A DNA stretch of 34,803 bases, taken from the NCBI GenBank assembly GCA_021149145.1, contig GCA_021149145.1_4322.1; one strand, written 5' to 3'. Shown piece by piece: positions 30,549 through 30,977 of the stretch (within the stretch, counting starts at the first letter, position 1; the number at the start of each line of letters is the position of its first letter). A model generated the notes under the pieces. It did not search any database, had not been told where the DNA came from, and was given only the letters and a program-made list of their open reading frames with translations. Position numbers and translations under genes: made by a program. Origin of the DNA: a phage.

Positions 30549-30977
30549 TCAGAACGGAATGTCATCGTTAAACTGCTGCTGTTGCTGTTGCTGTTGCTGC
30601 TGTTGCTGTTGCTGCTGTTGCTGTTGCTGTTGCTGTTGTTGTTGCTTCCCGCCATCGCCACGCTGACTAAACTCAAGTCTAGGGTTGTTCATGTTAATGG
30701 TTACGTAAGTTTTACCATCTTTATCGCGAACATCTACAGCCAAAGTTTCGCAACTTACGCTAACGATTTTACCTTCCTGAAATGCCTCATCGTACCATGC
30801 AATCATTGATTCTTTTGCGAAGAAGACAGCTCGATAGTTACTGTAATGTACCTGACCATCCTTGTCCTTGTAGCGCTCGCTTAAATCAACTGCATACATT
30901 TTCCATGTTCCGTTAGCATTCTGACCTTCTTTGGTGAACGGAGCACGACGGATAACACCAGTGATTACGTGACTCAT
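30549..30977 (-). CDS. ssb: single-stranded DNA-binding protein
   Basis: An OB-fold-sized N-domain, a linker, and the canonical acidic tip FNDDIPF. Confidence 0.8.
   Translation of the reverse strand: MSHVITGVIRRAPFTKEGQNANGTWKMYAVDLSERYKDKDGQVHYSNYRAVFFAKESMIAWYDEAFQEGKIVSVSCETLAVDVRDKDGKTYVTINMNNPRLEFSQRGDGGKQQQQQQQQQQQQQQQQQQQQQQQQFNDDIPF
30573..30644 (-). repeat. (CAR)24 tract encoding Q24 in the SSB linker
   Basis: 24 consecutive Gln codons, with CAA and CAG interleaved. Confidence 0.95.

Follow-up and report, generated by a model that had tools for sequence, protein, structure and literature searches.

[quoted passage not shown] Homopolymeric glutamine tracts are familiar from eukaryotic proteins such as TBP and ATXN2, where they are encoded by mixed CAG and CAA codons and change in length by replication slippage. 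The general pattern of the interplay between CAG and CAA has been described (PMC12147016, PMC7247214). Through its conserved C-terminal peptide, the E. coli protein contacts many partners that act in genome maintenance (PMC7584906), and the composition of its linker tunes cooperativity and condensation (PMC7584906; 10.1101/2022.01.17.476650). Both the non-nearest-neighbour cooperativity and the phase separation of E. coli SSB have been attributed to amide-amide contacts of the linker, made mostly by Gly backbone amides and perhaps by Gln/Asn side chains (10.1101/2022.01.17.476650). The apicoplast SSB of Plasmodium falciparum (PfSSB) has a tail with 29 N+Q, 2 G and 21 anionic residues, and shows neither phase separation nor non-nearest-neighbour cooperativity (10.1101/2022.01.17.476650).

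How does the locus studied here compare with these systems? It comes from a T1-like siphophage of E. coli, a member of the Drexlerviridae, and lies in a window of 34,803 nt, the whole stretch of DNA that was analysed. Its ssb gene encodes 24 consecutive Gln residues (Q24) just before the acidic C-terminus. The features of the locus are as follows.

30549..30977, minus strand: ssb open reading frame of 142 aa (ORF list; match to PHROG_44; homologues annotated as SSB)
30660..30977, minus strand: predicted OB-fold ssDNA-binding domain, residues 1-106 (AlphaFold2, Foldseek, profiles)
30573..30659, minus strand: intrinsically disordered linker, residues 107-135, GDGGK followed by Q24 (pLDDT; homologous position in relatives)
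30573..30644, minus strand: uninterrupted (CAR)24 tract that encodes Q24 and amounts to a (CAACAG)n or (CAGCAACAGCAACAG)3 tandem repeat (codon order, periodicity)
30552..30572, minus strand: C-terminal acidic tip FNDDIPF, a putative SSB-Ct-like docking peptide (conservation of IPF)
30521..30540, both strands: predicted bidirectional intrinsic terminator, a hairpin that separates ssb from the converging tail-fibre gene (terminator scan)
28065..30518, plus strand: tail-fibre gene, converging on ssb across the terminator
31018..31710, minus strand: Erf-family single-strand annealing protein, directly upstream of ssb (Pfam PF04404 ERF, E 1.4e-27)
31739..32710, minus strand: PD-(D/E)XK exonuclease (DUF3799, 'exodeoxyribonuclease VIII'-like; Pfam PF12684, E 1.5e-21; the annotations of relatives match)

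The phage protein shares with E. coli SSB the three-part architecture, the DDIPF end, the disordered low-complexity linker and a recognisable OB fold (Foldseek matches 1qvc and 1eyg). It differs in that its OB domain falls outside the PF00436/TIGR00621 thresholds, and in that its linker has 29 residues with 3 Gly, no Pro and 24 Gln, while that of E. coli has 56 and is rich in Gly, Gln and Pro. Like PfSSB, it has a natural SSB tail dominated by amide side chains with few Gly; unlike the highly acidic tail of PfSSB, its linker is net neutral and homopolymeric. With the eukaryotic tracts of TBP and ATXN2 it has in common the homopolymeric Gln, the interleaved CAA and CAG and a length change probably driven by slippage. 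It is distinct from them in that the tract is the linker of a phage SSB, that 24 residues stay under the thresholds of disease-type aggregation, and that its mix of codons agrees with usage across the genome and gives no separate sign of stabilising selection.

Identity of the protein and its neighbourhood

Is the protein an SSB? Its full length (residues 1-142) matches positions 88-228 of the profile PHROG_44, 'single strand DNA binding protein' (E 5.8e-30, 105.9 bits), and homologues are annotated as SSB in the phages phiA2-1, TR2, JeanPiccard and IMM-001. The OB domain has matches in 1,157 GenBank phage records, and a database search gave 501 homologues. A Pfam search of the protein gave no match to PF00436 even at E 0.1; the scores against TIGR00621 (18.3 bits, cut-off 53.95) and NF006445 (21.6, cut-off 246) did not reach the curated thresholds, and no Pfam domain was found in any of 120 close relatives. 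A single-sequence phmmer search of PDB sequences with the OB domain returned chance matches only, for example to PsaH and enolase, so that a family profile and structure prediction were needed.

In the AlphaFold2 model, for which 37 sequences were aligned, the block-mean pLDDT is 94-98 over residues 1-100, with strands and one helix in OB topology. Almost all of the 50 PDB matches listed by Foldseek for this model are bacterial SSB/PriB OB folds (E 2.6e-5 and probability 1.00 for the top match; the best matches have a target-normalised TM of about 0.4-0.5), which places the predicted domain with the SSB-type OB folds. A family profile of 39 diverse members matched the mitochondrial SSB Rim1 at E 2.7e-4 and the bacterial SSB chain 3pgz at E 0.31, and hhalign against the E. 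coli SSB core gave E 1.3e-4 with a probability of only 54%. In the register of this moderate-confidence alignment, Y48 aligns with E. coli W54 and F53 with F60, so the aromatic residues that stack on ssDNA have counterparts in the phage protein. N47 and Y48 are invariant in the family and F53 is near-invariant. The linker follows with pLDDT below 50 at residues 110-137 and no secondary structure in the model, and then the acidic (D/E)-x-IPF C-terminus, FNDDIPF, whose residues I140, P141 and F142 are conserved at 90% or more in the family alignment.

Since PHROG_44, the profile matches to Rim1 and E. coli SSB, the OB model, Foldseek, the tip and the Erf and exonuclease neighbours all agree, the protein is best described as a predicted divergent but genuine SSB-type protein with OB core, disordered linker and host-like acidic tip. 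The initial annotation, which called it an SSB with these three parts, is thus borne out by PHROG_44, AlphaFold2 and the profiles. Its placement with the bacterial-type SSBs, based on the fold and on weak profile similarity, is more tentative. Binding of ssDNA, assembly into a tetramer or dimer and docking of partners via the tip are predicted properties, to which the genomic context with Erf and exonuclease upstream lends support. Several GenBank records call members of this family 'hypothetical protein' or mis-annotate them.

The nearest GenBank genomes are those of AN_ECEAS and ES, with about 90% nucleotide identity over 83% of a 10.8-kb query, followed by phiA2-1, CY1, TR2, JeanPiccard, DTL and Rtp. 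The gene order is exonuclease-Erf-SSB, with the exonuclease first and ssb last in the recombination module. The true start of Erf is probably the ATG at 31668, which would give 216 aa as in the relatives, whose counterpart is annotated as a 651-nt recombinase. The terminator hairpin is conserved in AN_ECEAS, phiA2-1 and CY1. The flanks, the tip, the stop codon and the terminator are kept across the relatives, while the linker is scrambled between them. The CAR tract was also considered as a recombination junction between modules; this was rejected because similarity among the relatives extends through tip and terminator alike and is lost only beyond the latter.

Translation of the open reading frame puts Q24 at residues 112-135, after ...EFSQRGDGGK and before FNDDIPF and the stop, and so confirms the tract between OB domain and tip at exactly 30573..30644. 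Its codons, 11 CAA and 13 CAG, follow one another as AAAGAGAGAGGAGAGGAGAGAGGG (A for CAA, G for CAG). A homopolymer of 24 residues is far beyond chance. On the opposite strand, the repeat reads as a poly-Leu open reading frame at 30582..30809 (plus strand), rightly called spurious in the initial annotation and a mechanical by-product of the repeat; a second frame shadow, poly-Cys, is seen at 30490..30666 (plus strand). Both were rejected as genes, being shadows of the repeat inside a well-supported ssb.

Linkers in the relatives and rarity of long glutamine runs

The Drexlerviridae SSBs of the group of AN_ECEAS, ES, phiA2-1, CY1, TR2, JeanPiccard, DTL and Rtp (PHROG_44) are orthologues whose OB domains are 85-99% identical to the one studied here. 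They likewise stand after Erf and before the same terminator, with the same class of tip, the same range of linker length and a linker dominated by Gln. The difference lies in the tracts, which in the relatives are all broken by P, R, K, H, N, S or T and in the Q24 protein are free of interruptions.

Linkers were compared across 119 close relatives. They span 22-36 aa, and their median of 29 is also the length in the Q24 protein. The Gln fraction is 0.48-0.73 (median 61%), against 0.83 here, and the longest pure Q run is 3-11 residues (median 6), against 24 here. Among the 119 there are 106 distinct linker sequences. The Gln tracts are broken mainly by P, K, R, H and N, most of which are one nucleotide from CAA or CAG, and also by S, T and a few others. 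Pro occurs within the linker of 118 of the 119 relatives and R, K or H inside the tract of all 119, while the Q24 tract has neither; the motif [RK]Q(Q)P is found in 83. Given that Pro and basic interruptions are so common across the clade, the pure tract is most parsimoniously derived, and the interruptions appear to be ancestral.

The initial annotation had held that SSB linkers are normally mixed in composition and that Q24 is unusual among them. The first statement suits the wider family, in which 65 representatives at 50% identity have linkers of mixed Q/P/A/G/N/S ending in FDDDIPF, and fails for the protein's own clade, where every linker is Q-dominated. The second stands for purity, since no relative has a run longer than 11, and falls for length and Gln-richness, which are typical of the clade or nearly so. 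The novelty of the linker, which polyQ linkers of similar length in related SSBs were expected to lower, is therefore lowered in part: Q-rich linkers of similar length are common, because every linker of the clade has this character, and pure runs are not.

How rare are such runs in larger collections? Three collections were searched for a pattern of at least 14 Q within 10 codons of an IPF-stop, namely IMG/VR with 2.9 M contigs, the JGI metagenomes with 241 M records and the GTDB genomes with 32 M contigs. The latter two gave out-of-frame chance matches only. In IMG/VR one real SSB-like gene was found. It encodes a small phage SSB of 92 aa (L125; phrog_18154, IMG/VR 3300044676_006367) and adjoins a Sak-like annealase; its run of Q15-16 is encoded by a perfect (CAA CAG CAA)x5. 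L125 resembles the Q24 protein in being SSB-like, in lying beside a single-strand annealing protein and in having a pure Q run of multi-codon repeats just before a DEIPF tip. It differs in belonging to an unrelated and much smaller family, and in having a shorter run with PAQQSLV between run and tip. The origin of its run from a perfect multi-codon repeat suggests that the same process recurs elsewhere.

A control with at least 10 Q in IMG/VR brought four further contigs, representing three further SSB-like proteins of other families, and no Drexlerviridae. These collections thus seem to sample the clade poorly, and it is mainly from the 119 relatives that the rarity of Q24 is judged. When IMG/VR was scanned for (CAR) repeats of at least 20, no SSB tip was seen among the matches listed, which were mostly giant-virus contigs and other unrelated ORFs. 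A literature search on polyglutamine linkers in phage SSBs and on glutamine-rich phage SSBs found nothing relevant, nor did a text search for Gln or polyQ in a 2025 paper on linker engineering (PMC12143593). Judged by these comparisons, the pure Q24 is the most extreme known allele of the clade's Q-rich linker.

Codon order and origin of the pure tract

The order of the codons gives a clue to how the tract was formed. Tandem Repeats Finder reports a repeat of period 6 (CTGTTG) with 12.3 copies and 89% matches, and also periods 15 and 21. At period 6 the self-identity of the tract is 91%, with a perfect (CAACAG) stretch of 26 nt, and at period 15 there is a perfect stretch of 47 nt, (CAG CAA CAG CAA CAG)x3. 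When codons were shuffled, the period of 5 codons had P 0.004, or 0.024 corrected for the periods tried, and matches at a period of 2 codons had P 0.017; the 18 runs of the codon order are also more regular than chance (P=0.026). This periodicity, moderately significant at P about 0.02, is the footprint of multi-codon tandem duplication, and the perfect repeats leave substrates for in-frame slippage in the tract. The tract was earlier said to be irregularly interleaved. That description does not hold, because a repeat of period 6, 15 and 21 is detected and the order is more periodic than chance.

Slippage can also be followed in the relatives. Four pairs with identical OB domains are 1, 2 or 4 Gln apart in one run (P0038/P0041, P0044/P0045, P0077/P0078, P0012/P0014), and P0081, which has the OB domain of P0077/P0078, carries an H insertion in addition. 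The allele closest to Q24 is P0001, which comes from a Logan assembly and is identical at 330 of 333 nt of the OB domain (99.1%), with 3 substitutions and no indel. It shares the first six Gln codons with the Q24 tract, and its remaining linker is ...QPQQQQQQRQPQQQQQ. Over the 72 nt of the tract, an alignment of the two linkers needs no fewer than 3 mismatches plus 12 gap columns, and they differ by about 5 indel events. Every repeat unit has a length in nt that is divisible by 3, and the 120 relatives are in frame to the tip except one truncated record. The locus thus has the two marks of a coding microsatellite, a tandem repeat at the DNA level and length polymorphism, the latter seen in the relatives, from which slippage of the Q24 tract itself would be expected. 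A classical contingency (phase-variable) locus was rejected for it, as a change of length alters the tail without switching expression.

How, then, did a pure tract arise in this one allele? We think it likely that Q24 is a derived, homogenised allele of the hypervariable CAR-repeat linker of an ordinary Drexlerviridae SSB, produced by in-frame repeat turnover. The linker of the clade would be a degenerate (CAA/CAG)n coding microsatellite whose rate of change far exceeds that of the remaining gene, by in-frame slippage or duplication of 3-, 6- and 15-nt units together with point mutations. Recent multi-codon duplications and deletions would have homogenised the tract and removed the interruptions by Pro, Arg, Lys and His, which are retained in essentially all relatives, with the clade-typical linker length preserved. 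The divergent OB core of such a protein would coat ssDNA from the exonuclease and at replication forks, the disordered and uncharged linker would be a flexible spacer, and FNDDIPF would mimic the C-terminal peptide of the host SSB and recruit host, and probably phage, partners.

An explanation of another kind is that pure Q24 is an adaptive module which alters compaction, cooperativity or condensation of the SSB, and that its interleaving was selected against slippage, as the initial annotation proposed. Same-codon runs never exceed three, as was noted before and as the codon order confirms, and CAA interruptions are known to stabilise CAG tracts in eukaryotes. The coincidence of the linker length with the clade median suggests a constraint on length. 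In E. coli, moreover, amide-amide interactions of the SSB linker are what drives phase separation and cooperativity (10.1101/2022.01.17.476650). However, when 11 CAA and 13 CAG are ordered at random, the longest same-codon run is three or fewer in 23% of cases, and the codon mix mirrors the general Gln usage of the phage (CAG 104, CAA 68) and recurs in the short Q runs of relatives. The long perfect repeats of period 6 and 15 are themselves slippage substrates, run lengths are frequently polymorphic in the relatives (with differences of 1, 2 or 4 Gln, and the indels of P0001), and the allele has been seen once only. These facts speak against an interleaving selected to damp slippage, and we regard the explanation as a whole as unlikely.

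Could it instead be the rapid change of the tail that is selected, to suit hosts or partners or to escape defence, with Q24 as one of its states? The linker would then be a fast-evolving tuning element, and the uncharged, Pro-free Q24 an extreme state that differs in function, beyond being a neutral product of slippage. The many distinct linkers beside a highly conserved OB domain and tip, and the run-length variants on identical OB domains, are in accordance with this idea. In addition, phage SSBs are known triggers of Retron-Eco8, Hachiman, ShosTA, AbpAB and other systems (10.1101/2022.08.27.505566). However, the escape mutations documented for Retron-Eco8 lie in gp2.5-type SSBs, which are another family, and deletion of the C-terminal tail of T7 gp2.5, as reported, is probably without effect on Retron-Eco8 activation (PMC13402713). 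Relaxed constraint acting on a slippery template would equally give a variable low-complexity linker, and nothing in the window ties the tract to a defence or host-range function. Both the selected variability and a special function of Q24 as its extreme state therefore appear improbable. If they were real, slippage would let the phage rapidly change how long and how cohesive its SSB tail is; this could alter cooperativity or condensates at sites of replication and recombination, or recognition by SSB-sensing defences, and Q24 might be, for example, a state with stronger tail-tail association.

Finally, the tract might owe its purity to sequencing or assembly (for example to a low-complexity region that was collapsed or mis-polished) or to handling in the laboratory, and not be a natural allele. 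In favour of this, the exact protein is absent from a collection of 15 billion proteins and no relative exceeds Q11. Against it, the 72 nt of the tract are below standard short-read length, the frame is intact, as are the tip and the terminator, all in the order known from the relatives, the nearest natural allele begins its tract with the same six Gln codons, and the codon pattern is structured and not noisy. We regard an artefact as very improbable.

Consequences for the SSB tail

With homogenisation by in-frame repeat turnover as the preferred origin, what would the Q24 linker do? Most likely the protein behaves like one with an ordinary SSB tail. The linker may be somewhat more cohesive than its interrupted relatives, through amide-amide and linker-linker contacts, because amide-amide contacts operate in the E. 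coli linker and Q24 is net neutral and Pro-free. On the other side, the near-universal Pro and basic residues of the relatives could be functionally needed. If they are, a tract of nothing but Gln would either carry a slight cost and be short-lived, or have some special adaptive value.

The gene can thus be described, from its sequence, as the SSB of a known phage family in which a Q-rich linker is the norm of the clade, so that purity alone is exceptional. The comparison also flags an SSB family outside Pfam coverage. The protein is otherwise an ordinary phage SSB, and its value is that of a natural experiment. For E. coli SSB it is debated whether Gly backbone amides or Gln/Asn side-chain amides drive the cooperativity and phase separation of the linker, and here nature offers a reagent: an uncharged, Pro-free linker that apart from three Gly is pure Gln, together with more than 100 interrupted variants on a near-identical OB core. 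To our knowledge, polyQ tracts of such length are rare outside eukaryotes and their viruses. The clade also provides a clean example, from a prokaryotic virus, of a coding CAA/CAG microsatellite that appears to evolve by in-frame slippage.

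The junction downstream of ssb and the Erf region

The ssb gene and the tail-fibre gene are convergent, and the following feature lies between them:

window 30521..30540, both strands, bidirectional intrinsic terminator hairpin

The hairpin reads AAAGCCCC-GAAA-GGGGCTTT as stem, loop and stem. It is kept in the related phages AN_ECEAS, phiA2-1 and CY1, and the similarity of these phages in sequence stops directly past it. Thus the terminator marks a mosaic junction. On the other side of ssb, the exonuclease and Erf genes of AN_ECEAS are separated by an HNH endonuclease gene that is missing from the window (window 31018..31739 compared with 255..464 of L001, the AN_ECEAS side of the comparison). 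As listed, the window Erf ORF starts at a GTG at 31710. Since the Erf of relatives has 216 aa, translation probably begins at the ATG at 31668.

Annotation of the SSB family in databases

Pfam covers neither the window SSB (30549..30977) nor any of its 120 relatives, and genes of this family are labelled 'hypothetical protein' in several GenBank records. Despite the absent Pfam coverage, an SSB OB fold is confidently predicted. In the record of phage ES (GenBank OR466728), the label of the ssb homologue is 'terminase small subunit', and head-gene names are given to the exonuclease/primase region; the annotation and the sequence of this record appear to be shifted relative to each other. Among the relatives there is also a 95%-identical SSB (P0007) on a 43.9-kb contig labelled Streptomyces lividans, whose source is probably an E. 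coli phage contaminating that assembly.

Polyglutamine tails and the C-terminal tip

Do polyglutamine tails occur in SSBs of other families? One example is the following:

6019..6297 of IMG/VR 3300044676_006367 (L125), phage SSB of 92 aa (phrog_18154), adjoining a Sak-like annealase

This protein has a Q15-16 run, coded by a perfect (CAA CAG CAA)x5 repeat, and the tip DEIPF. Its family is unrelated to that of the window SSB, and its polyglutamine tail is convergent. Q10-12 runs directly ahead of a (D/S)IPF tip are also present in three more SSB-like proteins, which belong to different families and are encoded on four contigs (L134/L136, L135 and L137). This indicates that short pure-Q runs recur sporadically beside the tip. 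By eye, the L137 protein resembles a canonical bacterial-type SSB core.

Among homologues of the window SSB, P0004, P0019 and P0124 have 15 extra residues C-terminal to the IPF tip (...IPFASLGLQYGKHRIYAL). The extension could come from a lost stop codon or from fusion to a downstream ORF, and it would bury the predicted docking peptide.
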